Source: Candidatus Latescibacterota bacterium (lineage in GTDB: Bacteria; Latescibacterota; UBA2968). From it: 64,000 nt of DNA. The first letter of the stretch is position 1; every line of letters begins with the position of its first letter. The notes under the pieces were generated by a model, which was not told the origin of the DNA, ran no database searches, and saw only the letters and a program-made list of their open reading frames with translations. The stretch spans positions 28,561-92,560 of the forward strand of contig JAJEDY010000002.1 in NCBI GenBank assembly GCA_022821275.1, in the 5' to 3' direction. Positions 41,656 through 60,600 of the stretch are shown piece after piece. Position numbers and translations under genes: made by a program.

Positions 41656-41667
41656 GGAGATCACCCA

Positions 41668-43098
41668 TTGACATCAAAACGTCCCAACATTCTCTGGATC
41701 TGCACAGATCAACAACGCTACGACACCATCCATGCCCTCGGCAATGAACACATCCAGACACCCAACCTCGACCGCCTCTGCGCCGAAGGCGTCGCATTCA
41801 CACATGCCCACTGCCAGAGCGCGATATGCACGCCCAGTCGTTCCAGCTTTCTCACCGGGCTTTATCCCAGCACCGTACACGGCAACCGCAATGGCAATGC
41901 CTATTTCCCGGCAAATGAACGCGTACAACTCATCACCAAACGCCTCGCAGATGTCGGATACGATTGCGGTTTATCGGGCAAACTCCACCTCGCCTCTGCC
42001 TGGAACGGTGAAGAACAACGCGTTGACGATGGATATCGCAAATTCTGGTATAGCCACTCACACAATCAGGGCATCGGTATTGGCAACCAGTACACCGACT
42101 GGGTCACCGAACAGGGCATAGACCTCGGCGACGTCTTCCAAAGAAAAAAAGACGGCACATACGGCAACTATCGCCCCGACATGAATCCCCAACACCACCA
42201 GACCACCTGGTGTGCGGACCGCGCCATTGAATTTATCGAATCCCCCCACGACGGCCCCTATCTCATGAGCGTCAACCCCTTTGACCCGCACGGACCTTTT
42301 GACGCCCCCGACACGCACAAATACAATCCCGCCAGTCTGCCGCCGCCGCTTTTTTGCGAAAACGACCTGCAAACACAAACGCGACTCAAACGCTTTTTTG
42401 CTGACAAAGAAGGCAACCCTCCCGGGGACCGCGAACAGCACAACAAAGCGTCATACTACGGCATGATCGCCCTTATCGACGAAAACGTCGGCCGCATGCT
42501 CGATGCACTTGAGCGCACGGGCCAACGCGAAAACACCGTCGTCATCTTCACGAGTGACCACGGCGAAATGCTCGGCGATCACGGCCTCACCGGCAAAGGT
42601 TGTCGCTTCTACGAAGCCCTCGTGCGGGTTCCCCTCATCATCTCGTGGCCCGGCACCTTTCTCCAAGGACACCGCGCAGATGGCCTCACCGCGCTCTTAG
42701 ACATTGCGCCCACTCTCGCCGACCTCGCTGGCATCCCTCTCGAATGGACACACGGCAAATCCCTCATCCCAATACTCACGGGCGAACATCCCGGGCACGC
42801 GCACCACGAATTTGTGCGCTGTGAATACTACGATGTCGTCGATAAATTTGCCCCACACGCCTCCGAAAAACACAAACCCTGTTGGGCGACCATGTTGCGC
42901 AACGACCGCTACAAACTCGTCGTTTACCACGATGCCGACTATGGCGAACTCTACGACCTGCGAGAAGACCCCGATGAATTTCACAACCTCTGGGAAGACC
43001 CATCTCACACAGATCTGAAATACCAGCTCACAAAACAAAATTTCGACCACACCATTATATGCGCCGACCCCGGTCCCCAGCGCATCGGAAGGTATTAA
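41668..43098 (+). CDS. Formylglycine-dependent sulfatase, no signal peptide
   Basis: (TTG)TSKRPNILWICTDQQR...SAICTPSRSSFLTGLYP. GAGGAG RBS. Confidence 0.85.
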   Translation: MTSKRPNILWICTDQQRYDTIHALGNEHIQTPNLDRLCAEGVAFTHAHCQSAICTPSRSSFLTGLYPSTVHGNRNGNAYFPANERVQLITKRLADVGYDCGLSGKLHLASAWNGEEQRVDDGYRKFWYSHSHNQGIGIGNQYTDWVTEQGIDLGDVFQRKKDGTYGNYRPDMNPQHHQTTWCADRAIEFIESPHDGPYLMSVNPFDPHGPFDAPDTHKYNPASLPPPLFCENDLQTQTRLKRFFADKEGNPPGDREQHNKASYYGMIALIDENVGRMLDALERTGQRENTVVIFTSDHGEMLGDHGLTGKGCRFYEALVRVPLIISWPGTFLQGHRADGLTALLDIAPTLADLAGIPLEWTHGKSLIPILTGEHPGHAHHEFVRCEYYDVVDKFAPHASEKHKPCWATMLRNDRYKLVVYHDADYGELYDLREDPDEFHNLWEDPSHTDLKYQLTKQNFDHTIICADPGPQRIGRY

Positions 43099-43129
43099 CA
43101 CGAGCCAGCGTTTCAATGGAGAGCGCAAC

Positions 43130-43897
43130 ATGAAATTCAAAACACCGTTAGACGTCAGACTCGCTTGCAGAGCCAACGAACTCGAAGGCTTCGCCTCCCG
43201 CGCCCTGCCCGGCTACCTGTGTGTCAACGTCGCCTTTCTGGACACAGACTACGCCGACGATTTCGAGGCATTCTGTCGCGCCAACCCGAAACCCTGCCCG
43301 CTGATCGCTAAAATGGAACCCGGCCAAACGGACTGCCCCAAGTATGCACGCGCCCTCGACATCCGAACCGACCTGGGTTCATACGACATCGTACGCGATG
43401 GCGAAGTCACCGAACAGCGACAGGACATCGTAGATCTGTTCGACGACCGAACCGTTACCTTTCTGATCGGATCGAGCGTCTCCTTTGACGGCCTCCTGAC
43501 CGAGAAAGGCTACCCCGCCGCATTCGGACCGACCATCCAACTCACGTCGCTCCCGTGCGAAACAGTCGGACCCTTCTCGGGCAACATGGCCGTCACCATC
43601 CGCTCATTCGATTCGGCCATGATCGACGATGTATGGGAGTTCACCAGCCACTTCCCCGGATGTCACGGCGCCCCAATCGGAAAAAACAATGCGGATGAAC
43701 TTGGCATCGAAGAACTGAACGTCAACATGGACGGTCACACGTTTGAAGTACCCGAAGGAACGGACCGCTTGTATTGGGCTTGCGGCATCACACCCCGCAT
43801 TGTCGCCGAGCAGGCCAGGCTCCCGTTCATGATATCCTACACCCCTGGCCACGCAATGATCACCGACATTCCGACAGAGAGCCTGTACCAGGCCTGA
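43130..43897 (+). CDS. DUF1445/putative hydro-lyase (D-glutamate cyclase-like) family protein, tentative
   Basis: YLCVNVAFLDTDYADDFEAFCRANPKPCPLIAKMEPGQ resembles the family block (ANLVILP...A.DFL.FCQRNPKPCPLL). Size ~255 aa fits. Confidence 0.5.
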   Translation: MKFKTPLDVRLACRANELEGFASRALPGYLCVNVAFLDTDYADDFEAFCRANPKPCPLIAKMEPGQTDCPKYARALDIRTDLGSYDIVRDGEVTEQRQDIVDLFDDRTVTFLIGSSVSFDGLLTEKGYPAAFGPTIQLTSLPCETVGPFSGNMAVTIRSFDSAMIDDVWEFTSHFPGCHGAPIGKNNADELGIEELNVNMDGHTFEVPEGTDRLYWACGITPRIVAEQARLPFMISYTPGHAMITDIPTESLYQA

Positions 43898-43956
43898 CCT
43901 GGATCTCGAAACACCCAGTTCATACCCCGGTCCCAAACGCATAGGAAGATATTAGC

Positions 43957-45333
43957 ATGAACCAGCGACCCAACATCTTGCTCATCATGAGCGACGAACA
44001 CGATCCCGCAGTCACCGGCTGTTACGGTCACCCCCATATCGAAACGCCACACCTGGATCGCCTCGCATCCGAAGGCACCACCTTTGACAACGCCTATACT
44101 GCCTGCCCGATATGCGTACCGGCGCGCATGTCCTTTATGACCGGACAATACGTCCACCAGATCGGCACCTATGACAACGGCTCGCCTCTCGCGGGAACAA
44201 TCCCCACAATGGGCAGCTATCTCGAAGCCGCTGGCTACGAAACCGCAGTCTGTGGTCGCACCCACTTCATAGGACCCGAACGCCTGCACGGCTTTGGCGT
44301 GCGACTCATGGACGACGCCGAAAAATGGAAACACTGGAGTATGAGTGCCCCCTCGCGCACACCCGACAACCGGCGTGGGAGCAACAGCCACGTCACCGAA
44401 TGCGGTCCCGGCGAAAACTGGCAAATCGACTACGACAGCACAGCCACCGACCTCTCCGAACGCTTCCTCAAATCCCGCGCGCAATACCCCGACCGTCCCT
44501 TCTTCCTCTACACCGGCTTCATGAACCCCCACTTCCCACTTCTGTGTCCGCGGGAATACTTCGACCGCTACTATCCCGACCGCGTCGCCCTGCCACACAC
44601 GAGAACCGAACCCTGTGACACCCAACACCCCTCTATACAGCAACTCCGATACTGGCTGCGCAATGAAGAGCCCCTGAGCGACGACATCTCCACCACTGCA
44701 ACCGCTGCTTACTACGGCCTCATCTCTTTCACGGACGACCTCATTGGTCGCCTGCTCGACATTATCGATAACTCACCCCTGCGCGACAACACCGTCGTCA
44801 TCTACGTCAGCGACCACGGCGAAATGGGTGGACACCACGGCATATGGCAAAAACAATGTTTCTACGAGCACTCCGTGCGCGTCCCCATGATCATTCGCCA
44901 TCCAAACGCCGAGGGCAACCAGCGCATCGCCGCAGGAGCCAACCTCATCGACATCCTCCCCACCCTTCTCGACCTCGCCGAACAGGACCCCGCGCCACTA
45001 CCCGGCAGCAGCCTCCGCCCCGCCATCCTCGGTCATCCCTTCCCCGACCGCCCCATCTTCAGCGAATACCATGCCCTCGGTGCTCTAACTGGCGGCTTCA
45101 TGATTAAAAAAGGCGACTGGAAATACATCCACTACGTCGGCCTTCCCGACCAATTATTCAACGTCGCCAACGACCCCGATGAAATTGAGGACCGCGCCGA
45201 CGATCCCACCTGTGCCGACATCCTCTCCGATCTGCGCGCCGACCTCCACAACATCGTCAACCCCGAAGAAATTGATCAACGCGCCAAAGCAAATCAAAAA
45301 ATCAAAGGCATTAACAGAGCGGCCAGGGGTTAG
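43957..45333 (+). CDS. Formylglycine-dependent sulfatase, no signal peptide
   Basis: MNQRPNILLIMSDEHD...ACPICVPARMSFMTGQY (C-V-P-A-R). Confidence 0.8.
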   Translation: MNQRPNILLIMSDEHDPAVTGCYGHPHIETPHLDRLASEGTTFDNAYTACPICVPARMSFMTGQYVHQIGTYDNGSPLAGTIPTMGSYLEAAGYETAVCGRTHFIGPERLHGFGVRLMDDAEKWKHWSMSAPSRTPDNRRGSNSHVTECGPGENWQIDYDSTATDLSERFLKSRAQYPDRPFFLYTGFMNPHFPLLCPREYFDRYYPDRVALPHTRTEPCDTQHPSIQQLRYWLRNEEPLSDDISTTATAAYYGLISFTDDLIGRLLDIIDNSPLRDNTVVIYVSDHGEMGGHHGIWQKQCFYEHSVRVPMIIRHPNAEGNQRIAAGANLIDILPTLLDLAEQDPAPLPGSSLRPAILGHPFPDRPIFSEYHALGALTGGFMIKKGDWKYIHYVGLPDQLFNVANDPDEIEDRADDPTCADILSDLRADLHNIVNPEEIDQRAKANQKIKGINRAARG

Positions 45334-48192: not shown

Positions 48193-49731
48193 TTACTCCC
48201 ACAATCGTCTGTCCAGACTTCGGTACTGAATCGCCTCGGCAACATGGCGCGATTGGATATCCTCCTCCCCCTCCAGATCTGCTATCGTGCGGCTCGCCTT
48301 CAGAATGCGATCATACGCCCGCGCCGAAAGCCCCAATCGCGTAATCGCCATCCGCAACAACTCCTCGCTCTTATCATCTATTTTGCAAAACATCCGAATC
48401 TCTCGCGACCCCATATGCGCGTTGCTAAACAAATCTCTATAATCCGCGAACCGGTCCAACTGTATTTGCCGCGCGGCTTGCACGCGCCTGCGAACCTCTG
48501 CTGAAGACTCGCCGGCGGGTTCCTCAGCCAGTTCTTCATACGGCACAGCCGGAGCTTCCACGTGAATATCAATGCGATCCATCAATGGACCCGAGATCCG
48601 ATTGACATAGCGCTGCACCACAGGTGGCGAGCAAATACACTCGTGGTGTGGATCTCCCAAATACCCGCATGGACACGGATTCATGGCGCAAACGAGCATA
48701 AACTGCGCGGGATACGAAAGCGACACCGCCGCGCGTGCAATCGTCACAAAACTGTCCTCAACAGGTTGGCGAAGAGATTCCAGAACCTGTTTCTTAAACT
48801 CGGGAAGCTCATCCAAAAACAGCACCCCGTGATGAGCCAACGACACCTCTCCCGGCCGAGGATAGGGACCCCCACCGATCAACCCCGCATCTGAAATCGT
48901 GTGATGCGGCGAGCGAAACGGCCTGATCGCCACCAGTGCTGTATCGGGCGGCAACAACCCCGCCACCGAGTGAATTTTTGTCGTCTGCAGAGCCTCATCC
49001 AAGGTCAGATCGGGTAAAATGGTCGGCAATCTTCGGGCGAGCATCGTCTTACCCGATCCGGGAGGCCCCATGAGAATCGCGTTATGCGCGCCCGCCGCTG
49101 CCACCTCCAGCGCGCGCTTGGCATGCTCTTGCCCGCGCACATCCTTAAAATCCACCCGATGCATCCGCGCCTGCCGAAAAATCGCCGTGCTATTGATTTC
49201 AAAGGGCATGATATCGCAGTACCCCTCAAAAAAATCCAGTGCCTCACTCAAATCGCGCACCGGCAAAACATCTAACCCGCCTGTAATCGCCGCCTCTCGC
49301 GCATTCTCCACAGGAACGAGCAACCCTTTTAAACCCGCCTTTTTGGCTTCCACAGCCATTGACATCGCACCGCGTACGGGCCGCACCGTGCCATCTAAAG
49401 CCAACTCGCCCAAAATGAGATATTGCGACAACCTCTCGGGAGAAATAGAACCGCTCATCGCGGCAATAATGCCGATCGCAATCGGCAAATCAAATGCCGA
49501 GCCTTCCTTTCGGATATCTGCCGGTGCCAAATTCACCGTAATCCGATTATTTGGAAATGTTCGCCCGGCATTTTTAATCGCAGCCATCACCCGATCTCGG
49601 CTCTCCTTCACAGCGCTATCGGGCAAACCCACCACTGAAAATGAGGGAAGCCGACGCGAAATATCCGCCTCAATATGCACGATATACGCATCAATACCCA
49701 GCGTTGCACAACTCAACACACGCGCAGTCAT
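48193..49731 (-). CDS. yifB: YifB/ComM family Mg-chelatase-like AAA+ ATPase
   Basis: N-terminal Lon-protease-like domain, GPPGSGKT Walker A, and C-terminal ChlI-like domain with the Zn-ribbon-like CPCGYLGDPHHECICS. AAGGAGG precedes ATG. Confidence 0.85.
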   Translation of the reverse strand: MTARVLSCATLGIDAYIVHIEADISRRLPSFSVVGLPDSAVKESRDRVMAAIKNAGRTFPNNRITVNLAPADIRKEGSAFDLPIAIGIIAAMSGSISPERLSQYLILGELALDGTVRPVRGAMSMAVEAKKAGLKGLLVPVENAREAAITGGLDVLPVRDLSEALDFFEGYCDIMPFEINSTAIFRQARMHRVDFKDVRGQEHAKRALEVAAAGAHNAILMGPPGSGKTMLARRLPTILPDLTLDEALQTTKIHSVAGLLPPDTALVAIRPFRSPHHTISDAGLIGGGPYPRPGEVSLAHHGVLFLDELPEFKKQVLESLRQPVEDSFVTIARAAVSLSYPAQFMLVCAMNPCPCGYLGDPHHECICSPPVVQRYVNRISGPLMDRIDIHVEAPAVPYEELAEEPAGESSAEVRRRVQAARQIQLDRFADYRDLFSNAHMGSREIRMFCKIDDKSEELLRMAITRLGLSARAYDRILKASRTIADLEGEEDIQSRHVAEAIQYRSLDRRLWE

Positions 49732-49760
49732 CAAAACCTCCTTGCCTGAAAAACACTTGA

Positions 49761-49781
49761 GAATTAGGAATTAAGAATTGC
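49761..49781. repeat. Three tandem GAATTNN heptads (gaattag gaattaa gaattgc), 35-55 nt upstream of the yifB start
   Basis: Seen directly. The same heptad family and the exact 13-mer GGAATTAAGAATT recur at 55761-55797. Confidence 0.5.
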
Positions 49782-50075
49782 CCCGCCACCCGGATAAACG
49801 TGCGACGGTTTCAACTCTTTATTCGCATTGAATGAAGTCCTAAAATCAGGCAAGGAGCGTGCCAGAACCGATCAGATCATAACTTGTTGTTATAGAAACA
49901 AATACGTAATACCAAAGCAAGTGTGCGTTGAACGATGTGTTCACAATGGGTGGTTTGGATAGAACAAAATGTGCAAAGGAAAGAGCAGGGCGCGAGGGTT
50001 TCACATAAAGACACGAAGACACAAAGAAAGGCAAAGAAGGGGCTGGAGACTTGAGGCTGGGGCTGGGCGGACTGA

Positions 50076-53000
50076 CTACTCATAAAAAAACAAACTCTCT
50101 CGTTCTCGACAAAATTCGTAAAACGCCTTGAAACATCGGTTGGCTTTTAATGCGTCCTCTGATTGTGGAATGGCAGAGAAAAATGCCCGGCTACCCACCA
50201 CAATCAACTTTTGTCTGGCGCGTGTGATCGCCACATTAAAGCGATTGGGATTGTTCAAAAATGGACTGGTGACATAGTCGGGATCGGATGTGGTGAAAGC
50301 ATACAAAATGACATCGCGTTCCGCGCCCTGAACGCGTTCTACCGTATCGATCAAGGGCAATTTGGCATTGGCATCGCCCAGTCGCTTTGCAAGGCTGTCA
50401 GCGGTGGCGTTATTTTGTGCGCGGTGGGGAGAAATCAGAGCGATTTGATCGGCATCCAAACCGTGTTCGGCGATCAACCGATGGGCGAGTTGGGTTGTGA
50501 TCTCGATTTCTTCATCGGATTTCTGGTGGTGACCGCGGTGATCTACGATGAGGAGTACGACCGGTTTTGCCGGGTCGAGAACGCGATCTAACAGATCGCG
50601 GTGGTCGGTGTGTTGCAGCGCGAGGCGGTTTCGCGCATTGCCAGCGTCTGCGCGAAGTTCGCCATCATACCACATGTGACTGGGAAAAGAGCACAAGTCT
50701 TCGTTCATTCGATACGTGCGATCCAGGCGGACGCGGTGGGCAGAGTCGTATTGACTGAGCAGATAAGACAGCGCGGAATGGTGTGTGCCATTTTCCTCCT
50801 TGCGATCTGACAGGACAATGGGTGGCAATTGTTTGGTGTCTCCTGCAAACAGGAAATTCCCCTTGCCATAGAGCAAGCTCAACAGGGCCTGGGGAATGAG
50901 CATCTGAGATGCCTCATCGAATACAACCCAATCAAACACCTGTGGGAAAGTTCCCTTGTGACCTTCAAAAAGCTGATAGAGGCCAAATCCCGTGGCACCC
51001 AAAATCGCATAAGAAGACTCTGCAAGTGTTTCCACATCCTCTAAGCGTTCTACCCCGCGCTCTGTCAAATCCCACCGTCCCAATTTGAAGCATCGTGCGG
51101 GAAAGCCTTGCAAGCCGTGTTGTTCCACGAGCGCGACCACTTTGGCGAGCACCTGGTCAATGGCCTGATGCGTCAACGCGCTAACGGCAATCCGAAACGG
51201 CCTGCCCTCCTCTTGAGCATGCAGGATCAATGCAATGAGTATCCAACCCAACAAGTGCGTTTTGCCCGTTCCAGGCGGCCCTTCAATCAGGCTCAAGCGA
51301 TGTGTAAAAGGCAATGATAATGCCTGTTGTTGCGTCTCATTGAGTCCTGCTATTGCGCCAAATCCGCGCATCCAATTTTGCACCCATCTCAACGCATCGG
51401 GTTCTCGCGCCGCCTGCCAGTTGCCGGACAGAAGTTGTGACAGGGGATGCGCGCGGTCTTCCGAAAAAACGGTCTGAACAGCGTGAACCAGCCGAGGGCC
51501 ATTCCAATCGGTCAAGTCCTCTTCCAGAGAATACATAAGCTTCGGATTTAAGGCCAATCGCCCCTGCCGAGATTGTACCCATAAGTGCTCTGCGCTGTAA
51601 TCTGTAAGGATGACGGGCAAACCGTTTTGTACATCTGACAGGCCAATGGGCGCGAGTTTGAGAAAATCGCCCGCGCGGAATTTTGAGAGGCCGGTTTCTG
51701 GTACAATTTGAAATTCGTAGAGAAAACGGCCTTCGCGGTCAAGCGTGGTTTTTCGAAAACGGATGGGGCCCAGGGCGCGAAAGCGTTCCACGCGCTCAGA
51801 CAGGGGAAGGGCTTGTACGGCGAGCACGTCTTCTTCGTGGAGCCGCCGCTCCTCGGACAGAAAATTCAAATAGGCCGTTTGTGTGCTCTGCATATCATCT
51901 ACCGCGGGATCCCATTCGCCCTTTTCCCACGCGCTCGTCAAGTGCGAAGACACCCATTGCCACAGCGATATTTGCAAGCGCAATACGGTGTTGAGATATT
52001 CGACCATTTTTTTTTCTTGTATCCCTTCGCCATCATCAAAATGAAACAGACTTTGCGGCTCATTGAGTTCGGCATTGAGACCCAACAGGCGGTTGAGTGC
52101 GAAAAGCGTGGGATTGCCCGGCATGGGAAAATCGAATTGCGAAGCAATCAGCTTTTGTAAATCTGTGCGGTGGTTGCGATGGGGCAAAAACAAAAAAGAC
52201 AGGTCTTCTGATCCCTCGCACCAATCCTCAAAAGTCTGCCAGCAGCGCGTTCCAAAATGAAAAACATGTGGCCCTCGTCCGCCTTTGATACCTCGATTCC
52301 AGACGGACAAAAAACGCGCCGTGAAATCCCGCAACGCCTCTGGCAACTCGCCCTCTGATGCGACTTCGAGGATCTGGCTCTCGACCACCGTTTTCCCCTG
52401 CAGGGCGCGCCAACCTATCACGCGTGGGTGTCCCGAAACGGAGTCTTCTGCGATGTGTATGAAAATGGCTGTGGATAAATTACTCGGATAAGACCGCGTT
52501 TGTTCTTCCTTCAGACCGATTTTATTTTCTTGTAGCGCGGCGAGTTGGCCCGAAAGTTGTGTTTTCTGGTGTGGGCTGAAAAGATCGTCCCCGGAAACGG
52601 AAACAGATTCAAACCACGCATGGGCAGATGCGATGGTTTTGAGATCGCATTGGCGAAACTTTTGCAGCGCACCCGCGCTCAAATGCGGCACAAGCTGAAT
52701 ATCCTCTTGAAGTGCATCCCGATAACACGCCTCAAAATTGGGGCACGTCGTACAGTGGGTTTGGAGGTGATAACGCGCGCGGGCTGGGGCGCGTTGCAAT
52801 ATGCTGTTCATATTTCGAAACAGCGTGGGCAGTGCCGCCAGGTAGGGTTCGAGATCAAAAATGTGCGGTTCGGGCGTTTTGTCATGCCGAGAAGAGCGCA
52901 GCATCAAGAACCCCGAAGATGCCACGCACATGGGCAACTCGTGTTGCGCGATCACGCGGTCGAGTATATAGGCGTAAAATGCAACCTGCCACTTCTGTGT

Positions 53001-55745
53001 CTCGTAGGGCCTGCGGCTGTTTTTGATATCGCCCACCTGCAACACGACGCCGCGGTCTTCTTTTGAAATGCGGATGAGATCGGGAATGCCGATGCCATCT
53101 ACATGGCTCATCCAGTGGTCTTGTTGCCCCAAAACAGATGGCTGGATCAGAACGGCTTGAAACAAAAATGTCGATTGATCGGAGATTGTGTCTATGTCTT
53201 TCAACAGCGCGAGCGTTTTTTCAAACCGCGATTTGAGGGAAAGTCGCCTGCCCGTGTGGTCGCATGCCATCACTTCGCGCAAAACATTGACCTTCCGAAT
53301 GCGATTCAACACCTGTTTTTCGTGTAGATTTCCCCGTTCCATCCGAAGCGCGTTCAAGTCTGTATCGCTATCTCGCCATTGGGTTTGTTCAGCGGGTACA
53401 AAATTGAGGGCCAACCAGCGTTCACATTGATGGTGCAAAAAATACGCGCCCACCATTGTACCCGTAAGTGACCGCGGGCGATACTGCAGATCGGAGGTCT
53501 GTTCCGCGTGTCGGTCCGCAGGCCACCGCTGTTTTTCCCATGCGAGCAGATCGGTTTGTATTTTTGTATCGAGATAAATGGGGTGAGATTCGATCTCATA
53601 AATAGTTTCCACGAGCAGGGCGGGATCGCCAGACGCGATTTCTGAAGGGTGTTTCAGGTAGTGCTGGAAGGTTTTGGCAACGCGCGGATCAAAGAGGAAA
53701 TCCGTTACTTCTTCGACCAACAGAGGGCGGGGCAAGACCTCACAAAAGGCATTGAGAGGAAACAGGCTGTACAGGGATTCCAGGTGTTCTTTCATCCAGT
53801 GGGCAAAATCTTCTCGGTCTTGCGGGAGAGGGAGCGCTTGAAAATTGACCCAATGAGAACAGTCGATACCGATACTGTCTGAAGTCACCGTAAAATCTTT
53901 CAGATCGCCATACTCGCGTTCAATGATCCACTGTAACACGAGATTGCCCACAGAACCGAGATAGGTGCGATAGCGATACAGGCCGCCCAAACTGCGTTCA
54001 ACTTCAATGCTATTGTGCAAAACAACCGTGCGCTTCAGACTTCTCGCCGCATCGTTGAGCAATTTTCGCGTGCGGGAAAACAGGCCCAACGCGCTTTTTT
54101 CAGTATCCTTATGAAGAATATCTCGAACCGATTGTGCGACTTCATAAGACACCCGAAATCCCGCACCCAGCCAGAAAAGCTCTTTCTCGTCTATTCGATC
54201 CGTCGGTTGGGCAATCACTCTTTTGCGTTCACCCGTATCAATATTCAAAACGCATAATCGCTTGCCCGTCAGTTGCACGCGGTCACCGAGTTCCAATTGT
54301 CGAACGATGAATTTGGGCAAATCTGCAATGGCTTCGCCCGCAAATTCCAGCACATAATCCTCTTCGGTCTCGGGGAAATTGCTCCAAATACGCCGTTCCA
54401 AAAAATAATCGCGATAGCGTCGTCCCCCCTTAAAAAGACCCGTGACGTGATCTTTTCGCAACCACTGTTGCCGCGCCAAGGCCTCAAACAAATGGGCGAT
54501 CATGTTCCGCTGATCGGGAAACAAATCGCAAAGAGCAGACTGCGTGATGGTTTTCTTTTCGTACAAGCAGGAAAGCATTTGCTGGACGAGAACGCTGGGC
54601 AGAGTTTTGGGTTGCGGTGTTTCAATATGGCCGCGGCGCGCCATGTTCAGCATGCCCAAAAATCTGAGCAATTGCGCCTGTGCATCTGTGCCTCGGCATA
54701 TCCCCCAAAAATGCGTGTGTCCTTCTCGCCGGTTGGACCGCCCAATGCGCTGGAGAAAAGCCGATGTGGCATCCGGCGGTTCGTAGAGCAAGACGCTATC
54801 GACATCGCCGATATCAATGCCGAGTTCAAGTGTACTCGTGGCGATGCAAAGGGCGTGTTCGCGGCGGCGAAAACGGTATTCTACGGCGCGGCGCGTACTG
54901 GCCTTCAGGTTGGAGTAGTGGAGGTCGGTAACGCCTTGAAACGCACCTTGACGCGACAAAAGAGAAAACAGCCGATCACAACATCCTCGGCTGTTGGCAA
55001 ACAACAAAATTTTGCGATCCCCGTAGGTTTCGTAGAGATCGTTTAAGAGCGCGACGAGTTCGACCTCATCGTTTTTGAGGTGGATCAAATGGGGAATGAT
55101 ATCGCGTTGGACGGATTCGATGAGGCATACCGCATCGGGTCGAAACCCAAAAAAACGGGCAACCTCCTCGACATCGGCGAGCGTGGCGGAAAGAGCTATT
55201 TTTTGCAGGGGATGGGCGATGCGGCGTTGCAGGCGCGTGAGCAAATAGGATAATTGCCGGCCACGATACTGGTGAATGAAGGGATGTGCTTCATCGATAA
55301 TGACCGTGCGAATGCGCTGGACAAAATATTTCAAATCCGCATTTGAACTGCCCAAGAGCACGTCAAAAGATTCGGGCGTCGTCAATAACAGATCGGGCAG
55401 TGCCCCGCCTGTCCGTTTGAAATCGCCCGTGCGTATCCCCATTTGCAGGCCGAGTCTATCCTTCAATACAGGTGTGAGACGGCGTTCTAAATCTACGGCC
55501 AGTGCCCGCGTGGGAACCACATAAAGCGCGGTTTGTTGCCGCCCCGATTGAATGACGCGCTCGATGCACGGCGCCAGCACAGCTTCGGTTTTGCCAGAGC
55601 CAGTTGCAGATTGCAAGATCAGATCTCTGCCTTGCAAAATCGGTTCAATGCTTTGCTTTTGAAAGGGATAGAGGTGGGGAAAAGAGCTGTAAAATGCGCG
55701 GTAGGTATTGGGCAGTTGAAGCAGAGGAGAGATGGATTCGGACAT
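50076..55745 (-). CDS. 1,889-aa multidomain protein: Lhr-like SF2 DEAD/DEAH helicase plus Cas4/Dna2-like PD-(D/E)xK nuclease with Fe-S Cys cluster plus Upf1/Dna2-like SF1B helicase
   Basis: aa 48-53 SATGSGKT, 150-153 DEAH, 332-339 QRIGRSNR (SF2). aa 774 Cys, 886-889 GIPD, 906-908 D-I-K, 920-924 Q-x-x-F-Y, 998-1007 C-x2-C-x5-C (nuclease plus Fe-S). aa 1489-1496 GPPGTGKT, 1610-1613 DEAS, 1806-1813 QGAERDVI, 1837-1844 NVAITRAR (SF1B). Single uninterrupted ORF. No SD before the ATG. Confidence 0.8.
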   Translation of the reverse strand: MSESISPLLQLPNTYRAFYSSFPHLYPFQKQSIEPILQGRDLILQSATGSGKTEAVLAPCIERVIQSGRQQTALYVVPTRALAVDLERRLTPVLKDRLGLQMGIRTGDFKRTGGALPDLLLTTPESFDVLLGSSNADLKYFVQRIRTVIIDEAHPFIHQYRGRQLSYLLTRLQRRIAHPLQKIALSATLADVEEVARFFGFRPDAVCLIESVQRDIIPHLIHLKNDEVELVALLNDLYETYGDRKILLFANSRGCCDRLFSLLSRQGAFQGVTDLHYSNLKASTRRAVEYRFRRREHALCIATSTLELGIDIGDVDSVLLYEPPDATSAFLQRIGRSNRREGHTHFWGICRGTDAQAQLLRFLGMLNMARRGHIETPQPKTLPSVLVQQMLSCLYEKKTITQSALCDLFPDQRNMIAHLFEALARQQWLRKDHVTGLFKGGRRYRDYFLERRIWSNFPETEEDYVLEFAGEAIADLPKFIVRQLELGDRVQLTGKRLCVLNIDTGERKRVIAQPTDRIDEKELFWLGAGFRVSYEVAQSVRDILHKDTEKSALGLFSRTRKLLNDAARSLKRTVVLHNSIEVERSLGGLYRYRTYLGSVGNLVLQWIIEREYGDLKDFTVTSDSIGIDCSHWVNFQALPLPQDREDFAHWMKEHLESLYSLFPLNAFCEVLPRPLLVEEVTDFLFDPRVAKTFQHYLKHPSEIASGDPALLVETIYEIESHPIYLDTKIQTDLLAWEKQRWPADRHAEQTSDLQYRPRSLTGTMVGAYFLHHQCERWLALNFVPAEQTQWRDSDTDLNALRMERGNLHEKQVLNRIRKVNVLREVMACDHTGRRLSLKSRFEKTLALLKDIDTISDQSTFLFQAVLIQPSVLGQQDHWMSHVDGIGIPDLIRISKEDRGVVLQVGDIKNSRRPYETQKWQVAFYAYILDRVIAQHELPMCVASSGFLMLRSSRHDKTPEPHIFDLEPYLAALPTLFRNMNSILQRAPARARYHLQTHCTTCPNFEACYRDALQEDIQLVPHLSAGALQKFRQCDLKTIASAHAWFESVSVSGDDLFSPHQKTQLSGQLAALQENKIGLKEEQTRSYPSNLSTAIFIHIAEDSVSGHPRVIGWRALQGKTVVESQILEVASEGELPEALRDFTARFLSVWNRGIKGGRGPHVFHFGTRCWQTFEDWCEGSEDLSFLFLPHRNHRTDLQKLIASQFDFPMPGNPTLFALNRLLGLNAELNEPQSLFHFDDGEGIQEKKMVEYLNTVLRLQISLWQWVSSHLTSAWEKGEWDPAVDDMQSTQTAYLNFLSEERRLHEEDVLAVQALPLSERVERFRALGPIRFRKTTLDREGRFLYEFQIVPETGLSKFRAGDFLKLAPIGLSDVQNGLPVILTDYSAEHLWVQSRQGRLALNPKLMYSLEEDLTDWNGPRLVHAVQTVFSEDRAHPLSQLLSGNWQAAREPDALRWVQNWMRGFGAIAGLNETQQQALSLPFTHRLSLIEGPPGTGKTHLLGWILIALILHAQEEGRPFRIAVSALTHQAIDQVLAKVVALVEQHGLQGFPARCFKLGRWDLTERGVERLEDVETLAESSYAILGATGFGLYQLFEGHKGTFPQVFDWVVFDEASQMLIPQALLSLLYGKGNFLFAGDTKQLPPIVLSDRKEENGTHHSALSYLLSQYDSAHRVRLDRTYRMNEDLCSFPSHMWYDGELRADAGNARNRLALQHTDHRDLLDRVLDPAKPVVLLIVDHRGHHQKSDEEIEITTQLAHRLIAEHGLDADQIALISPHRAQNNATADSLAKRLGDANAKLPLIDTVERVQGAERDVILYAFTTSDPDYVTSPFLNNPNRFNVAITRARQKLIVVGSRAFFSAIPQSEDALKANRCFKAFYEFCRERESLFFYE

Positions 55746-55760
55746 GATAGCTATAAATGC

Positions 55761-55795
55761 GAATTAAAAATTGGGAATTGGGAATTAAGAATTAA
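55761..55795. repeat. Five tandem heptads (gaattaa aaattgg gaattgg gaattaa gaattaa), 16-50 nt upstream of the big helicase-nuclease gene start
   Basis: Seen directly. On the coding (minus) strand it reads TTAATTC TTAATTC CCAATTC CCAATTT TTAATTC then GCATTTATAGCTATC-ATG. Confidence 0.5.
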
Positions 55796-55843
55796 GGGTC
55801 GGGAACGGTGCGGGCCGCAATGATAATCGCTATTCCTGTCGTC

Positions 55844-55868
55844 ACGCCTGCAGGTCTTAAGCAGGCGT
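55844..55868. promoter_or_regulatory. Perfect 8-bp-stem palindrome/hairpin ACGCCTGC-N9-GCAGGCGT between ATPase gene C and the big gene
   Basis: About 20 nt downstream of the gene C stop. No U-run follows on the transcribed strand, so it reads as an operator or RNA-stability/processing element rather than an intrinsic terminator. Confidence 0.35.
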
Positions 55869-55887
55869 CCAGTACGCTTTATTCGCA

Positions 55888-57105
55888 TTATAAAATTTGA
55901 GCTTGATGGGCGAGGTCCAATTCATCGACCAGACCTTTGAGCCGATAGCGCGTCTCCTGCCCTTGCATGTGCGATAATCGCTGCGCCATTTCGCGCCGCA
56001 CAGCGGCCTTGAGTGGCTGCCATTGATAGGCTTTAGCATGTAAGTGCATCAACTTCTCGATCAACGCGTGCCATTCTTTCGCAGACAAATCGCGAAGTAG
56101 ATAGTGTTTCATATCTGTCCATGCACTGGCGTAATCTTTCTCAAAATAGGGAATTTCCTCTTCATTGCGGATTCGCACCCGGTCGTATTCTTCTTCATCT
56201 ACTTTTTGAAAAAAGTCGTCTGTAAAAGCAAAAACCGGATAAATAGATGCGGATGGAACGGCGGAGAAAAGCATCTGATCCAAATTCTGATAACTGCGAC
56301 TGCGGCTGGTCACGCGCACTTGAGAAATCGATTCTCCCTCGTCAAACAGCAACACCCATCCGCGGTAGCCCATCAATTGAAAAAGCCGCCCCAATCCGCG
56401 AATTACTTGCAGGTAGGGTTCTGCACCTTTACAGGTAAGCGATGTATCATTGTAAAAATCAACCTGTCGGTATTTGAGTGCGTGGCGCAAGCGATAGACT
56501 GGCACCACATCACCTGCAAGTGCGCGGGAAAGCAGGTAGGGAAATTCGCGCGGGCGGTATGCCGCGTGTTTTTTAGTGCCGCGCTGTCGCTTTGAAAGGG
56601 AGATTGTTTTTTGAGCCATCGCGGTCAGGACAGATCGGAACAGGTGCGGCATTTCCCGCTGCAAAAGCGGCGCGACTCGGGCCTCAAAGTCTTTGCGTGA
56701 TAGGTCACTTGCCCAGGCGCGCCATCGCGCTGCCAACGTGGTGTCTGCATCGGGAAATCTCATAGAGGCGACCAGGGCATGATAGACTCGTCGCATATCG
56801 TGAAAGGGAATCTCTCGAGGATCTAAATTGATGAAGGTGGTTACAAAATTTTCGCGCAGGGCCAGATCGTGGATGTAATTCAAACTGTGCGATTTGCCCT
56901 GCCCATAAGCCCCACAGATGCACAGATGGGTTGGCTTATTTTGGTCGAGTTGTTGAAAATCGCGGTCAATGATTTTTTTTAGATGGCTTTCGCGGGCTGT
57001 GAGCAGACGAACCGCAACAGGATCAAAAAGTCCTTCTCGCAGGCGTTCTATGGCACGCCGTAGGTGGAATGCCGTTTCATTGGATCGCGTTTGGAGAGAG
57101 GTCAT
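55888..57105 (-). CDS. BrxD-like (DUF2791-type) P-loop ATPase, paralog 2
   Basis: Walker A LCICGAYGQGKSHS, Walker B WVLLFDEGES, ~400 aa. Start at the ATG giving MTSLQ (57103-57105), overlapping the upstream gene stop as TGATGA. The first in-frame ATG (57117) is also possible. Confidence 0.55.
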   Translation of the reverse strand: MTSLQTRSNETAFHLRRAIERLREGLFDPVAVRLLTARESHLKKIIDRDFQQLDQNKPTHLCICGAYGQGKSHSLNYIHDLALRENFVTTFINLDPREIPFHDMRRVYHALVASMRFPDADTTLAARWRAWASDLSRKDFEARVAPLLQREMPHLFRSVLTAMAQKTISLSKRQRGTKKHAAYRPREFPYLLSRALAGDVVPVYRLRHALKYRQVDFYNDTSLTCKGAEPYLQVIRGLGRLFQLMGYRGWVLLFDEGESISQVRVTSRSRSYQNLDQMLFSAVPSASIYPVFAFTDDFFQKVDEEEYDRVRIRNEEEIPYFEKDYASAWTDMKHYLLRDLSAKEWHALIEKLMHLHAKAYQWQPLKAAVRREMAQRLSHMQGQETRYRLKGLVDELDLAHQAQIL

Positions 57106-58394
57106 CAGGCATCCCATGTCGGTTGAAGTTGTTCAACTTTTTCCTGCTCCATTTCTCGCTGGCTGACCACGAGTTGCTCGGCCATATCCATATCTTCGTC
57201 TGGCAGCACACCTTGCTCGGCCATGTCGAGTATGCGAATGACCTGCTTGATATAGAGCCGGACCTCGCTTAAAAGCCCCATGCGCTTTTGAGCGACACAC
57301 ATTTTGTTTAACAAATCTTCGCCGACATGTTCCTGGGCATCCCATCGGTAGGACAATTCGTGAATGCGTTTCAGGCAAAGCCCCAGATTGACCAGTTCGC
57401 TGGTTTCCAAAGGCGTCCTGTGAAGATCAACCAACACGCTGCGGTAATTCAGCCGTTTGCTTTCGCCAATAGAACGCACGCGACTCCACAGCGCGTCGTA
57501 GGACTTAAAACCCTTTTCCGAGAGCGTCACATCGGGAATAATGGACATAAAAATGTGCAAATAAGACGCTTGCTCGGCATTGTCGATCAGTAAGCGGACA
57601 TTTTCATAAGACGCATTGCGAATGGTTGTCGATTGGGCGATTACGGTTTCCAATTCGTCCATCAGCAGTACGAGGCCCTTGTAGTTGAGATGCCGCAAAA
57701 AGACAATGAGCGAGGTCAAAAAGCGTTTGCTATTGGTCTTATCGAGGGCTTCAAAAATCTGGAACGGTTTGAGCTCTCGCTTGCTCACCCGCGCACCTTC
57801 AAACCACTGGTAGAGAATTTCCCGCTGATATGCACGCGCCTCTTCGTCTTCACCTGCTTCAAGCGGTCTGAGGCGATTGTCTGCCAACCCGATCAGCGCA
57901 TTGGCAAAATTGAGATCCATCCCAGAAAGCGCACGCAGGCTTTCCCCCACAGAGAAGAGTTGTTCTTCGAGAGGTGCATCATCTGTCAGATTGGCTTTCA
58001 GATTTTCGACCCAATCATCCACGAATTGGCGGATACCCACGCCTTCAAAAGAACCGCAGAGCTGGCGCGCGATGGTTTGATAGACAATCTCAAATTTGTG
58101 TATGGGCACTTCGCGCGTGAGCACCACAAAAGACACGGCGAACTTTTTTTTAAGCGCGAGGTGCTTGATAACCGACATAAAATGCGTTTTGCCATCGCCA
58201 TAGTCCCCGTTGATAAAGCGAACCTTCGCGCCCCCTTCGGCGATGTAGTTATCCAGGTCTTCTTCGATAAACTTCAACCAGTTCTGACGCCCCACACTAA
58301 AAAAGGGCACGTAATCAATCGGCACGCTGCCTTTGCGGAGATCTTCAATAATGGCCCGCGCCTCAAAGGGTTTGAGCTGATCCAATTGTGTCAT
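57105..58394 (-). CDS. BrxD-like (DUF2791-type) P-loop ATPase, paralog 1
   Basis: Walker A RFINGDYGDGKTHF, Walker B LVLLMDELET, 429 aa. AGGAGAAAGG RBS. Similar domain order and length to the downstream paralog. Confidence 0.55.
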   Translation of the reverse strand: MTQLDQLKPFEARAIIEDLRKGSVPIDYVPFFSVGRQNWLKFIEEDLDNYIAEGGAKVRFINGDYGDGKTHFMSVIKHLALKKKFAVSFVVLTREVPIHKFEIVYQTIARQLCGSFEGVGIRQFVDDWVENLKANLTDDAPLEEQLFSVGESLRALSGMDLNFANALIGLADNRLRPLEAGEDEEARAYQREILYQWFEGARVSKRELKPFQIFEALDKTNSKRFLTSLIVFLRHLNYKGLVLLMDELETVIAQSTTIRNASYENVRLLIDNAEQASYLHIFMSIIPDVTLSEKGFKSYDALWSRVRSIGESKRLNYRSVLVDLHRTPLETSELVNLGLCLKRIHELSYRWDAQEHVGEDLLNKMCVAQKRMGLLSEVRLYIKQVIRILDMAEQGVLPDEDMDMAEQLVVSQREMEQEKVEQLQPTWDA

Positions 58395-58417
58395 GTGTCA
58401 TGTCCTTTCTCCTGCAT

Positions 58418-59251
58418 TTATTCTTGAAAAGCAATGGTGGTAATCTGTCGCCGTTCTCCATCGCTGTCAATCAGCCAAAGGGCCTTGTTCCGCCCCGGCC
58501 TTAGCTGCACGGCATAACCCTCTGACGTACCCCCCGTTCCAGCCTGAAAATAACGCCAAATATCTACGGCGAATTGATCCAGGCTATATCCTCGAAACCG
58601 TCCCTTATCCATGTCCTGAAAAAATGCCCGGCTCTGAAGAGAGAGCACATATTCCAGATATAATTGCTGCATTGCAACAGGCTCCCCCATCTCTCGATCT
58701 TCTTTTTTTAGAATTTCCGCATATACGTCATATAGCTTATCAATAAACACCTGTGGATCATAAGGGCGGTCATAGAGTTGCTGCTTTACCCTGCGGAGAG
58801 CAGTAATGATGCGCTTTGGATCAACGGATTTCAGGGTTTTTTTATTGATCACAGTTTTCCGCTGTGCAAAGTCAACATCTCCCTCTATGCCTTTGAGCAC
58901 CTCAATACGCGGAAAATCGACCTCTATTGGAAGTTCCGCTTCACGCGCCAATGTCGCCAGATCTTCTATAAATTGGATTCGGTATCGCTCCACCTGTTCA
59001 TCCGCATAAGTACGCAATTGATCTAAAAACTCTGCACCCTCCTTTAGTCCCACTTCTTCTTCCACATCCCGCGCCATTTTGGACTTGAGCAATTCGTCGA
59101 GTTGAAAAAAGTCATTCCTCCCGGCACTGCGGATACATTGTTTCACAAAATCGGCCATTCGCTGACGGCGGTTTTGCTGCTGTTGATAGGGCCTGACCAC
59201 GTCCGTCAATTTCTCTTGCATTTGCTCGAGAAATTCTTCTCGATCTACCAT
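58418..59251 (-). CDS. Hypothetical 277-aa protein, first gene of the operon
   Basis: Charged, helical-looking, no recognisable motif. GAAGG RBS. Driven by the predicted promoter at 59299-59327. Confidence 0.5.
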   Translation of the reverse strand: MVDREEFLEQMQEKLTDVVRPYQQQQNRRQRMADFVKQCIRSAGRNDFFQLDELLKSKMARDVEEEVGLKEGAEFLDQLRTYADEQVERYRIQFIEDLATLAREAELPIEVDFPRIEVLKGIEGDVDFAQRKTVINKKTLKSVDPKRIITALRRVKQQLYDRPYDPQVFIDKLYDVYAEILKKEDREMGEPVAMQQLYLEYVLSLQSRAFFQDMDKGRFRGYSLDQFAVDIWRYFQAGTGGTSEGYAVQLRPGRNKALWLIDSDGERRQITTIAFQE

Positions 59252-59298
59252 TTTGATTACCTTCTATTTTGGATGTAAGTGATTTCCGATCGCGTGTA

Positions 59299-59327
59299 AT
59301 TTTATCGCTGTACACAAAATGTGTCAA
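59299..59327 (-). promoter_or_regulatory. Near-consensus sigma70 promoter for the 4-gene operon
   Basis: Minus strand TTGACA(59327-59322)-17 bp-TAAAAT(59304-59299), about 45 nt upstream of the gene A ATG. Confidence 0.45.
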
Positions 59328-59355
59328 GTCGGAAATATCGGCGAAACAAACGCGC

Positions 59356-60600
59356 TTACTTCATCCGATCCAGCACGGGTTGTAATTTTTGTCGCACTGC
59401 CTCTGCTTCTGCACCTCCATCGACAATGGGATACTCTTCCAACTCATCTGCTACCACATCGTACAAATCGCCCGTATCGTAGAGCTTCCAGCGTTTATCC
59501 TGTGCCCATCGCTTTAAGTAATAGCCCTCCTTACCCCATCCGGGCAAAGGATCGTGATGGGCAAAAATCCACTCGCGCGGCGTTCCCGTCTCGCCCTTTA
59601 ACTGCGACAAAAAAGACACCCCATCAAACACATCGTCCTCGGGCAAAGGAACGCCAGCCATATCCATCATAGTGGGCACAAAATCGCTGCAATCGATCAA
59701 ATCATCACACACAGACCCCGGTGGAATCGTACCCGGCCAACTCGCAACAAATGGCACCCGCGTACCCGCATCAGTCGAAAGCCCCTTTCCCCCCTGGAAC
59801 TCGCGACCATGAATAATAGAAGTCACCTGACGAGGCGAACCATTATCGCCTATAAACAAAAGTAAAGTATCCTCTCTAAGCCCAAGCTCATCCAATTGAT
59901 CCACAATCCGCCCAATCACCACATCCATATACTCAACCATATCTTTAAAATACTTCACCCCACTATCGTGTCGATTCTCAGACCATATTTCACTATGGGG
60001 CGTGGGTTCAAACGGACCGTGTGTCAGCGCCATGGGATAATACACAAAAAACGGCTCATCTTTATGCCGCTCGATATAATCGCAAATATAAGCCGTATAA
60101 ATATCTGGACCGTACTTACCCTCTGTATCCTCCAAATACGCTCCATTTTGTTGAATCACCGGATCGGCATATCGCGACCCCTTATCCTCGGTATGTTCCG
60201 TATGCCACAAACAATACTCGTCAAAACCCGAATCTTCCGCCAATTGCCCCTTGCCGCGCCACTCGGGCTCAAAATCCGGCGGATTATAGCTATACATTTG
60301 CCATTTACCCGAAATACACGTTTTGTACCCAGCCGCTTGCATCAAATGTCCAAAAGTGCGCTCCTCGGGGTCCATAACGCCAAAAGCTCTCCAATTGCGA
60401 AAATTGTATTTACCCGTCATCAACTGTAACCGCGTCGGCGTACACAACGGCAGGACATACGCATGATCAAAACGCATTCCCTCCTTGCTCAAACCATCCA
60501 GCACGGGCGTTTGATACGACTCACCTCCATAACACCCCAGGCATTCATATCCCAAATCATCGGACAGAATCAAAATAATATTCGGTTTATCAGAAGCCAT
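59356..60600 (-). CDS. Formylglycine-dependent sulfatase, no signal peptide
   Basis: MASDKPNIILILSDDLGYE...VLPLCTPTRLQLMTGKY (C-T-P-T-R). GAAAGGAG RBS. Confidence 0.85.
   Translation of the reverse strand: MASDKPNIILILSDDLGYECLGCYGGESYQTPVLDGLSKEGMRFDHAYVLPLCTPTRLQLMTGKYNFRNWRAFGVMDPEERTFGHLMQAAGYKTCISGKWQMYSYNPPDFEPEWRGKGQLAEDSGFDEYCLWHTEHTEDKGSRYADPVIQQNGAYLEDTEGKYGPDIYTAYICDYIERHKDEPFFVYYPMALTHGPFEPTPHSEIWSENRHDSGVKYFKDMVEYMDVVIGRIVDQLDELGLREDTLLLFIGDNGSPRQVTSIIHGREFQGGKGLSTDAGTRVPFVASWPGTIPPGSVCDDLIDCSDFVPTMMDMAGVPLPEDDVFDGVSFLSQLKGETGTPREWIFAHHDPLPGWGKEGYYLKRWAQDKRWKLYDTGDLYDVVADELEEYPIVDGGAEAEAVRQKLQPVLDRMK

Follow-up and report, generated by a model that had tools for sequence, protein, structure and literature searches.

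Why would an operon encode two BrxD-type ATPases side by side, where the canonical loci of this family encode one? The question is raised by a 64-kb stretch of Candidatus Latescibacterota DNA (below, the window, meaning the whole stretch analysed), which is ~98% identical to a Candidatus Latescibacterota metagenome-assembled genome (MAG; L001). The listing of its open reading frames (ORFs) reveals four consecutive minus-strand genes that form an operon, here called A-B-C-D. Genes B and C encode the two ATPases, and D encodes a composite of helicase and nuclease domains. In a sequence-only reading of the region, B and C were described as translationally coupled paralogs and proposed to form an obligate heteromeric ATPase; the pair turns out to be the core of a wider A-B-C-D cassette, a context missing from that reading. 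We lean, by somewhat more than an even measure, towards the view that a B-C hetero-oligomer controls the helicase-nuclease D within an accessory defence cassette. The four genes and their central junction are as follows.

58418..59251, minus strand: gene A, 277 amino acids (aa), a conserved protein without known family
57105..58394, minus strand: gene B, 429 aa, a BrxD-family (PF10923) AAA+ ATPase of the origin recognition complex (ORC)/Cdc6 type
57100..57108, minus strand: overlap of the B stop and C start, cTGATGAcc, read directly in the sequence
55888..57105, minus strand: gene C, 405 aa (409 aa if begun at 57117), a divergent PF10923 paralog
50076..55745, minus strand: gene D, 1889 aa, a composite helicase-nuclease

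The first step is to establish what B and C are. Both belong to Pfam family PF10923 (BrxC_BrxD, formerly DUF2791), for which the gathering threshold is 22.2 bits. B matches with 185.6 bits (1.9e-54) through residues 11-394, covering positions 5-400 of the 414 in the profile, and C matches with 84 bits (1.4e-23) in two stretches, likewise above threshold. Among the PADLOC models, BrxD is the best for both proteins (1.5e-42 and 144 bits for B; 6.7e-18 and 63 bits for C), followed by SngB of the Shango system (1.6e-32 and 9.5e-11, respectively). The NCBIfam BrxD equivalog (NF033438, cut-off 350 bits) is reached by neither, with 142.8 bits for B and 64.3 bits for C. Aligned with one another by BLASTP, the two proteins are 23% identical over 414 columns, end to end (E 1e-13), and their family profiles align over 369 columns with an hhalign probability of 99.5% (E 1.2e-22). 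By these comparisons B and C are paralogs, and both are P-loop ATPases of the BrxD/DUF2791 family. The lack of similarity that the sequence-only reading had named as refuting it, between B and C or to BrxD/DUF2791, was not seen. On each of these points the sequence-only reading is borne out, as it is on size: it gave about 400-430 aa for each gene, and the ORFs measure 429 aa and 409 aa (405 aa from 57105).

The catalytic motifs are also where that reading had placed them, its positions being approximately right. In B, Walker A is GDYGDGKT at residues 63-70 (nucleotides (nt) 58185-58208; K69/T70) and Walker B is VLLMDELE (nt 57648-57671; D246/E247). The counterparts in C are GAYGQGKS at residues 65-72, counted in the 405-aa form (nt 56890-56913; K71), and WVLLFDEGE (nt 56332-56358; D255/E256). 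Residue conservation was computed over 120 B-type and 121 C-type homologs, and the Walker A glycines, Lys and Ser/Thr together with the Walker B Asp-Glu are invariant in all 120 and all 121. Further positions separate the two proteins. Invariant throughout the B homologs are K69, T70, D246, E247, R259, R267, R305, R307, P425, W427 and D428, and five arginines count as invariant in B (R259, R267, R305, R307 and R318). Throughout the C homologs, K71, D255, E256 and R268 are invariant, whereas the positions aligned to the R305/R307 region of B are less conserved (R309 in 86%, R313 in 74%). B also ends in an acidic tail, E..EK.E.L.P.WD (residues 414-429, 57105-57152), which closes with P-x-W-D, is invariant in the 120 homologs and is lacking in C; it may act as a peptide on which A or D docks. 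A remote relative (P0364) terminates in ...YNPNW, which can be compared with this tail. Judged by these patterns, B and C are not equivalent subunits and C is not a pseudo-ATPase, because its Walker motifs are invariant.

An AlphaFold2 model of C (predicted local distance difference test score, pLDDT, 86.1; predicted template modelling score, pTM, 0.82) was compared with known structures. The top Foldseek matches were Orc4 (7tjj_D), Orc5, Cdc6, Aeropyrum ORC2 (1w5t), the Sulfolobus Cdc6/Orc1 heterodimer (2qby), RuvBL, ATPase_2, RdrA of RADAR and BrxC (9zll), with probabilities of 0.99-1.00, yet with modest E-values (5.6e-4 and weaker) and template modelling (TM) scores of ~0.35-0.4. The predicted fold of C is thus an AAA+ core of the ORC/Cdc6 type with a helical lid at its C-terminus. 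This model is consistent with the classification of BrxD, which a 2026 comparative study placed in the ORC-Cdc6 clade of AAA+ ATPases (PMC12839542). Searched by sequence against chains in the PDB, the B and C profiles gave no match, solved ORC/Cdc6 chains included.

How tightly are the two genes joined? The B stop codon TGA occupies 57107-57105 and the C start codon ATG occupies 57105-57103, with one A common to both, and the coding strand across the junction reads TGG GAT GCC TGA TGA CC. This is the overlap that the sequence-only reading had seen, and it supports the translational coupling proposed there. An in-frame ATG upstream, at 57117, would make the overlap 13 nt; the start at 57105 is the more likely of the two, because the C orthologs measure 403-415 aa and begin at the TGATG position. 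Over 72 related loci, 51 have a B/C spacing of -1 nt (TGATG or TAATG; 27 loci), +3 nt (18) or -4 nt (6), and the large gaps are mostly explained by fragmented genes or insertions.

The arrangement recurs far beyond Latescibacterota. One genome for each species, 185,579 in all, was scanned for relatives of C. Of the 234 places that came up, the best 80 were kept as loci, and the six-frame ORFs of these were searched with the window proteins A, B, C and D. B stands directly upstream of C in 73/78 informative loci, comprising 71 recognised automatically, L074, where the genes are adjacent, and L055, where a 1-kb insert separates them. A lies upstream of B in 69/74. A homolog of the N-terminal part of D lies directly downstream of C in 47/65 loci, is 7-8 kb off in 3 and does not occur in the downstream sequence at hand for the other 15. 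The hosts include Latescibacterota, Desulfobacterota (Desulfobacter, Electrothrix and Syntrophobacteraceae), SAR324, Nitrospirota, Nitrospinota, Chlamydiota, Methylococcales, Legionellales and Entotheonella, and the B-C pair is found in about ten phyla. With the closest relatives left out, homologs of A are 47-77% identical to the window protein, those of B 59-82%, those of C 38-68% and those of D 36-65%. One contig binned as Asgard, from a 'Promethearchaeota' MAG (L020; JAIWHJ010000256.1, 3.9 kb, low coverage), carries A-B-C at 54-66% identity, either through horizontal transfer or through binning contamination.

A remote, shorter version of the cassette came to light on two plasmids, starting from a tblastn search of B against plasmids. 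On the conjugative plasmid3 of Aulosira laxa NIES-50 (AP018310.1 18893-24287; L164 11577-16971), four genes encoding 279, 420, 398 and 697 aa, annotated as hypothetical or as a generic helicase, lie directly downstream of a BREX-2-like PglZ-BrxD-BrxHI block (BREX, bacteriophage exclusion). On the 27-kb plasmid pDESTI.01 of Desulfomonile tiedjei DSM 6799 (NC_018026.1 10215-15641; L166), the corresponding genes encode 279, 430, 397 and 701 aa, their junctions overlap or nearly abut, and an AbiEi/AbiEii pair lies ~3 kb away. In RefSeq both ATPases of pDESTI.01 bear the label 'BREX system ATP-binding domain-containing protein'; public records thus show the tandem, though without a name. The profile of A detects both 279-aa plasmid proteins (E 9e-14 and 1e-16). 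The helicases of the short cassettes are 32-35% identical to the N-terminus of D, and the neighbouring true BrxHI is 26% identical to it.

These remote cassettes date the pair. In a distance-based, neighbour-joining tree of the ATPases (bootstrap of 100), the C family groups with the second ATPases of the short cassettes in a single clade with 99/100 support. B, the first ATPases, BrxD, SngB and the other representatives fall outside it and are poorly resolved, except that SngB forms its own clade. Proteins of the C kind occupy the second position in every cassette sampled. Because the second ATPases of the short cassettes join the C clade, the split between B and C would be older than the divergence of short and long cassettes and specific to position, and by this tree the B/C pairing is ancient.

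A search of 1.84 billion representative proteins (a library clustered at 50% identity) with the B-family profile recovered 2457 members of PF10923 at E<=1e-3, and the B-type proteins all fall into one full-length cluster. Among the 150 matches listed, each with at least 126 bits against the B profile, no C-type protein was identifiable. Two proteins from this family have a pair of PF10923 modules within a single chain. In P0417 (783 aa) the first module is degenerate and the second intact, and in P0491 (563 aa, truncated at the N-terminus) the remaining Walker motifs are intact in both. Other fusions join PF10923 to a NERD nuclease domain (P0441) or to a SAP domain (P0490).

If B and C work together, on what do they work? 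The gene downstream of them, D, encodes four regions.

53646..55745, minus strand: D residues 1-700, a BrxHI/SngC/Lhr-like superfamily 2 (SF2; DEAD/Helicase_C) helicase with C-terminal accessory domains, from profile matches
52716..53528, minus strand: D residues ~740-1010, a Cas4/AddB/Dna2-type PD-(D/E)XK nuclease, from motifs and the Pfam matches of orthologs
51471..52715, minus strand: D residues 1011-1425, a conserved region without Pfam or PDB match
50076..51428, minus strand: D residues ~1440-1889, a Dna2/Upf1/IGHMBP2-like superfamily 1B (SF1B; AAA_11/AAA_12) helicase, from profile matches

Residues 22-693 of D match positions 22-687 of the 698 in the PADLOC BrxHI model (1.9e-87), with SngC at 7e-73. 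In Pfam the same part matches DEAD (1.2e-36) and Helicase_C (3.8e-15), and in NCBIfam the Lhr-like DEXH_lig_assoc (3e-59, under its cut-off). The nuclease region carries the motifs HxQCxRW, GIPDLIR, GDIKxS, QKWQVAFYA and CTTCPNFEACY, conserved in 18 orthologs, and four invariant cysteines in the pattern C...CxxCx5C (C35, C259, C262 and C268 of the alignment). Of these orthologs, 17/18 match Pfam Cas_Cas4 and 15/18 match PDDEXK_1 (best E 4.7e-7); the window D taken alone stays under the Pfam cut-off for a Cas4-type nuclease (19.8 vs 22.7 bits). A sequence-profile search of the nuclease region against PDB chains gave no match. From its motifs, the domain belongs with the Cas4-type nucleases; its activity and its iron-sulfur cluster are predicted. 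Residues 1011-1425 matched neither Pfam nor PDB chains, whether searched as a single sequence or as a profile. The C-terminal part of D matches AAA_12 (4.4e-30) and AAA_11 (2.2e-22) in Pfam, the IGHMBP2 family (1.3e-45) and PLuB_AAA (1.1e-45) in NCBIfam, and DpdJ (7.9e-50) and MkoA (3.1e-45) in PADLOC.

D is also modular. In several genomes (L037, L056, L057 and L071) it comes as two ORFs, the break lying after the nuclease domain; among them is the isolate Desulforhabdus sp. TSK, in which a 293-nt gap lies between the two. Three loci (L011, L035 and L074) have a short D of ~700 aa, consisting of the BrxHI-like part only, beside both ATPases. Four others (L017, L021, L027 and L042) have no D within 10 kb of A-B-C.

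Gene A is the least familiar member of the cassette. Its family counts at least 470 homologs, every one of them labelled 'hypothetical', and A matched nothing in Pfam, NCBIfam or PADLOC. The AlphaFold2 model (pLDDT 87.9) combines a long hairpin of helices with a small beta unit and, at the C-terminus, a module of a helix and three strands that may be winged-helix-like; the model found no significant fold match in the PDB or among the viral models of BFVD. That A might be a homolog of TerB/SngA was considered and rejected, as there is no Pfam match and hhalign against two SngA proteins gave a probability of at most 0.2%.

With its parts described, the cassette can be set beside known systems. 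It resembles the BrxD-BrxHI dyad of BREX type 2 in that B and C share PF10923 with BrxD, the N-terminal 700 aa of D cover the full BrxHI model, and the ATPase gene or genes lie immediately upstream of the helicase gene. It differs from BREX type 2 in having two ATPases, the extra gene A, and a D that continues beyond the helicase into a Cas4-like nuclease and a second, SF1B helicase. The single BrxD that the sequence-only reading had contrasted with the pair is indeed what a Rhodococcus BREX-2 locus holds, and each of two Shango loci likewise has one ATPase; the helicase of such canonical loci measures ~700 aa. Of the BREX partners PglX, PglZ, BrxC/PglY and PglW, PADLOC matched none in the operon, and PglZ and PglY from two BREX-2 loci found no match by tblastn in the 64-kb window. 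The Aulosira plasmid carries the two as distinct units, a true BrxD-BrxHI pair and, next to it, a short A-B-C-D cassette. BrxD and BrxHI have been described as a tightly linked dyad, with loading or activation of the helicase by BrxD proposed (PMC12839542).

Shango (SngA, a TerB protein; SngB, the ATPase; SngC, the helicase) was shown experimentally to act against phage (PMC10250203). The likeness here is in the succession of a small or adaptor gene, an ATPase and a helicase, and in being self-contained, without a methyltransferase. Unlike Shango, the window cassette has four genes and two ATPases, its D measures 1889 aa against ~710-745 aa for SngC, and its B, C and D score higher on the BrxD/BrxHI models than on those of SngB/SngC. 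SngA found no match by tblastn in the whole window, and A has no TerB domain. Since PglX, PglZ, BrxC and a TerB protein are missing, the BrxD scores are below cut-off and there are two ATPases, the cassette is best classed, from its sequences, as homologous to the BrxD-BrxHI dyad and to Shango but a member of neither. Neither a model for A nor a system of this composition is contained in PADLOC 2.0. The two-ATPase cassette was not found described in the full-text literature searched, the coverage of which is incomplete and no proof of absence. A Shango-like triad was observed on a haloarchaeal plasmid (CP002989.1; L165 4458-15224), where a large hypothetical protein, a PF10923-like ATPase and a DEAD/DEAH helicase are directly followed by metallophosphoesterase, SMC-domain and NurA genes, a set resembling Mre11, Rad50 and NurA.

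Two further comparisons concern the mode of working. With the ORC/Cdc6 loaders (Orc1-5/Cdc6 and archaeal Orc1/Cdc6), the cassette shares the predicted fold of C, paralogous subunits encoded together and a helicase as the presumed client. ATPases of the ORC/Cdc6 clade are typically hetero-oligomers with sites completed in trans, 2qby being a heterodimer. Unlike those loaders, B and C have no detectable sequence similarity to them and no appended winged-helix DNA-binding domain, and the client is a monomeric SF2/SF1 helicase-nuclease rather than a ring helicase; the resemblance is one of working mode, not of family membership. With AddAB, RecBCD, AdnAB and Dna2, D shares the joining of motors from two superfamilies, of opposite polarity in characterised members, to a RecB/Cas4-type nuclease, the four-cysteine pattern of which is that of AddB, Dna2 and Cas4. 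Unlike AddAB, RecBCD and AdnAB, D is one polypeptide, one of its motors is SF2 (Lhr-like) instead of SF1A, and it includes a 400-aa region without domain match.

The cassette is accessory. On a metagenome contig of a related organism (L084; Ga0187827_10013423, 1404-4476) the sulfatase and ComM genes that flank the cassette in the window (88% and 87.5% identity) lie ~290 nt apart without it, and the spacer between them aligns to the window sequence downstream of D; a second contig (L086) appears alike. This empty site makes the 9.3-kb cassette an insertion/deletion polymorphism. Two Candidatus Electrothrix loci (L034 10218-17421; L043 3736-10413) have C and D separated by an inserted island of 7-8 kb that carries a BrnT toxin, MNT/HEPN, an Eco57I-like methyltransferase, GmrSD_N (DUF262), a RelA/SpoT-like protein and PIN. 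Elsewhere, HigB follows C in L027 and a PIN gene precedes A in L049.

What would such an operon do? We propose that B and C form a hetero-oligomer, whether as a heterodimer or as a ring in which they alternate, where ATP sites would be completed in trans and both subunits would be competent. This assembly, probably with the coiled-coil protein A, would recognise a DNA substrate or a cue from an invader, and would then recruit, load or license D as ORC/Cdc6 or other AAA+ loaders do. The loader role is suggested by analogy, both with ORC/Cdc6 and with the proposal already made for BrxD-BrxHI (PMC12839542). D would be the effector, a two-motor helicase-nuclease that unwinds and degrades DNA in a manner analogous to AddAB, RecBCD and Dna2; going by the polarity of their families, its BrxHI/Lhr-type SF2 motor would run 3'->5' and its SF1B motor 5'->3'. 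The cassette as a whole would be an accessory module that has spread horizontally, most plausibly for defence against phages or plasmids, as kin of BrxD-BrxHI and Shango. This last step draws on the relatives in two defence systems, on the short cassettes beside BREX-2 and AbiEi/AbiEii, and on the Electrothrix island inside the cassette. We give the entire chain, from hetero-oligomer to defence, a slight balance of probability in its favour, starting from the homology, domain content, gene order, coupling, catalytic residues, age and position of the C clade, and accessory status described above. As for the heteromer itself, the proposal of the sequence-only reading has been strengthened by the 73/78 order, the tight junction, the catalytic residues, the C clade and the fusions; the heteromer is plausible, its obligate nature still a proposal.

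Several findings weigh against this chain at one link or another. Five loci carry an intact C without adjacent A and B, four of them with C alone (L022, L023, L025 and L039) and one with C-D (L028), and tblastn up to 10 kb upstream found neither A nor B in any of the five. For Desulfococcaceae bacterium HSG8, a B-type protein (P0318) is on record from a different contig. D is missing or displaced in 18/65 informative loci. Being distance-based, the neighbour-joining tree is open to long-branch attraction, which could inflate the support for the C clade. The two-module proteins P0417 and P0491 could be artefacts of gene calling, and their modules are not clear orthologs of B and C. For a defence system, the conservation of the proteins is unusually high (B 59-82% identity across phyla). 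Four Latescibacterota species hold the cassette at one common place, between sulfatase and ComM, and ~20 other positions examined are flanked mostly by metabolic or translational, that is housekeeping, genes and not by defence islands. The long-D family of the window was not found in the 2.9 million viral contigs of IMG/VR or the 72,556 plasmids of PLSDB; in PLSDB, C had no match and B matched just BrxD/SngB proteins, at <30% identity.

Of the other explanations, the one that fares best leaves the cassette as it is and parts the two ATPases. B and C would form separate homo-oligomers with separate jobs, one sensing or binding DNA with A while the other loads D, or each serving one motor. Both have complete catalytic motifs and in principle neither needs the other for hydrolysis; they are only 23% identical and the invariant C-terminal tail belongs to B alone; the two motors of D equal the ATPases in number; and a lone BrxD or SngB suffices in BREX-2 and Shango. 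Yet a stop/start overlap and strict adjacency kept over large evolutionary distance are typical of stoichiometric partners, two-module fusion proteins exist, and hetero-oligomers are the usual state in the ORC/Cdc6 clade. We regard separate homo-oligomers as rather doubtful. The stricter idea of one ATPase for each motor of D was rejected, since in L011, L035 and L074, and in the plasmid cassettes of Aulosira and D. tiedjei, both ATPases stand beside a single-motor helicase of ~700 aa.

A second explanation concerns the purpose and not the assembly. The cassette might be a chromosomal machine for DNA repair or recombination, an end-resection or fork-processing helicase-nuclease with its AAA+ loader, and not a means of immunity. 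An Lhr-like helicase, a Cas4/Dna2-like nuclease and an SF1B helicase are also parts of repair enzymes, and the housekeeping neighbours, stable synteny, GC content like that of the surroundings, high conservation and the negative search among phages would all suit such a role. Against it stand the presence or absence of the cassette at an otherwise conserved site, as seen in L084, and its very patchy distribution, with 234 places in 185,579 species genomes. Moreover, its closest named relatives are in two defence systems, remote versions lie beside BREX-2 and AbiE on plasmids, and toxin-antitoxin and restriction-modification-like genes are nested inside the Electrothrix cassette. A repair role is unlikely in our estimate, though still a serious contender in view of the housekeeping neighbours and the high conservation. 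That C is a degenerate pseudo-ATPase serving B as scaffold or regulator is very improbable: its family scores are weaker than those of B (84 vs 186 bits in Pfam, 63 vs 144 bits for PADLOC BrxD), its candidate arginine fingers R309 and R313 vary where R305 and R307 of B do not, and the first module of P0417 is degenerate, but GxxGxGK[ST]H and DExxE, and R268 too, are invariant in 121/121, which argues for selection on nucleotide binding and hydrolysis.

Returning to the B-C hetero-oligomer that controls D, a bolder form of it can be put forward tentatively, as a possibility that we would not yet back. A-B-C-D may be a distinct, unnamed family of prokaryotic immune systems, with a heterodimeric, ORC/Cdc6-like B-C that places a bipolar helicase-nuclease on the DNA of invaders under the guidance of A, a novel adaptor. 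The clade of second ATPases would be its signature, and the short form on plasmids would be ancestral, the form in Latescibacterota and Desulfobacterota having been derived from it by fusion of a Cas4 nuclease and an SF1B motor.

The remaining features of the region concern the control of the operon and its surroundings.

59299..59327, minus strand: candidate promoter, sigma-70-like, TTGACA-17-TAAAAT, with 11/12 consensus matches, ~48 nt upstream of the A start
55746..55887, minus strand: C-D spacer of 142 nt with an inserted element of ~130 nt, bearing a hairpin and the heptamer repeats TTAATTC/CCAATTC

The candidate promoter is the sole promoter-like site in 55600-59500, for which shuffled sequence gave a mean of 4.2, and is a consensus match only. 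The element in the C-D spacer is absent from the loci L001 and L002, both 98% identical, where the gap between C and D is 5 nt. ComM is immediately preceded by another, shorter copy (49755-49827), which L084 lacks. The two copies have the common ends AATGCGAATAAAG ... AATTCTTAATTCC[C/T]AATTC[C/T]CAA, and the hairpin, CGCCTGC-9 nt-GCAGGCG, is internal to the longer one. It might be a mobile or a regulatory element of small size that sits ahead of gene starts.

The flanks of the cassette in the window hold sulfatase, enolase-superfamily, Nth, MFS, ComM and penicillin amidase genes. The sulfatase genes number four and, with a D-glutamate cyclase-like gene, surround the cassette (40234-45333 and 59356-60600). 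ComM/YifB (48193-49734) follows directly downstream of D, an adjacency confined to close Latescibacterota relatives. The cassette shows no compositional anomaly, with a guanine-cytosine content of 51.1% vs 51.9% in the surroundings.

What, then, does the doubled ATPase offer? BrxD-type ATPases and BrxHI-type helicases are parts of two validated anti-phage systems, and the one idea published on how they work is loading or activation of the helicase by BrxD (PMC12839542). In the cassette described here the ATPases come as two co-inherited and apparently active paralogs, which makes the idea of helicase loading testable, because a heteromer can be mutated in one subunit at a time and the nuclease fused to the helicase points to the likely effector. 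Annotation pipelines would miss the cassette or mislabel it as 'BREX', and pDESTI.01, which is carried by the cultured strain D. tiedjei DSM 6799, is a possible experimental model. If the bolder reading of A-B-C-D as an immune family of its own holds, it would provide the first mechanistic handle on the BrxD-type ATPases of BREX type 2 and Shango.

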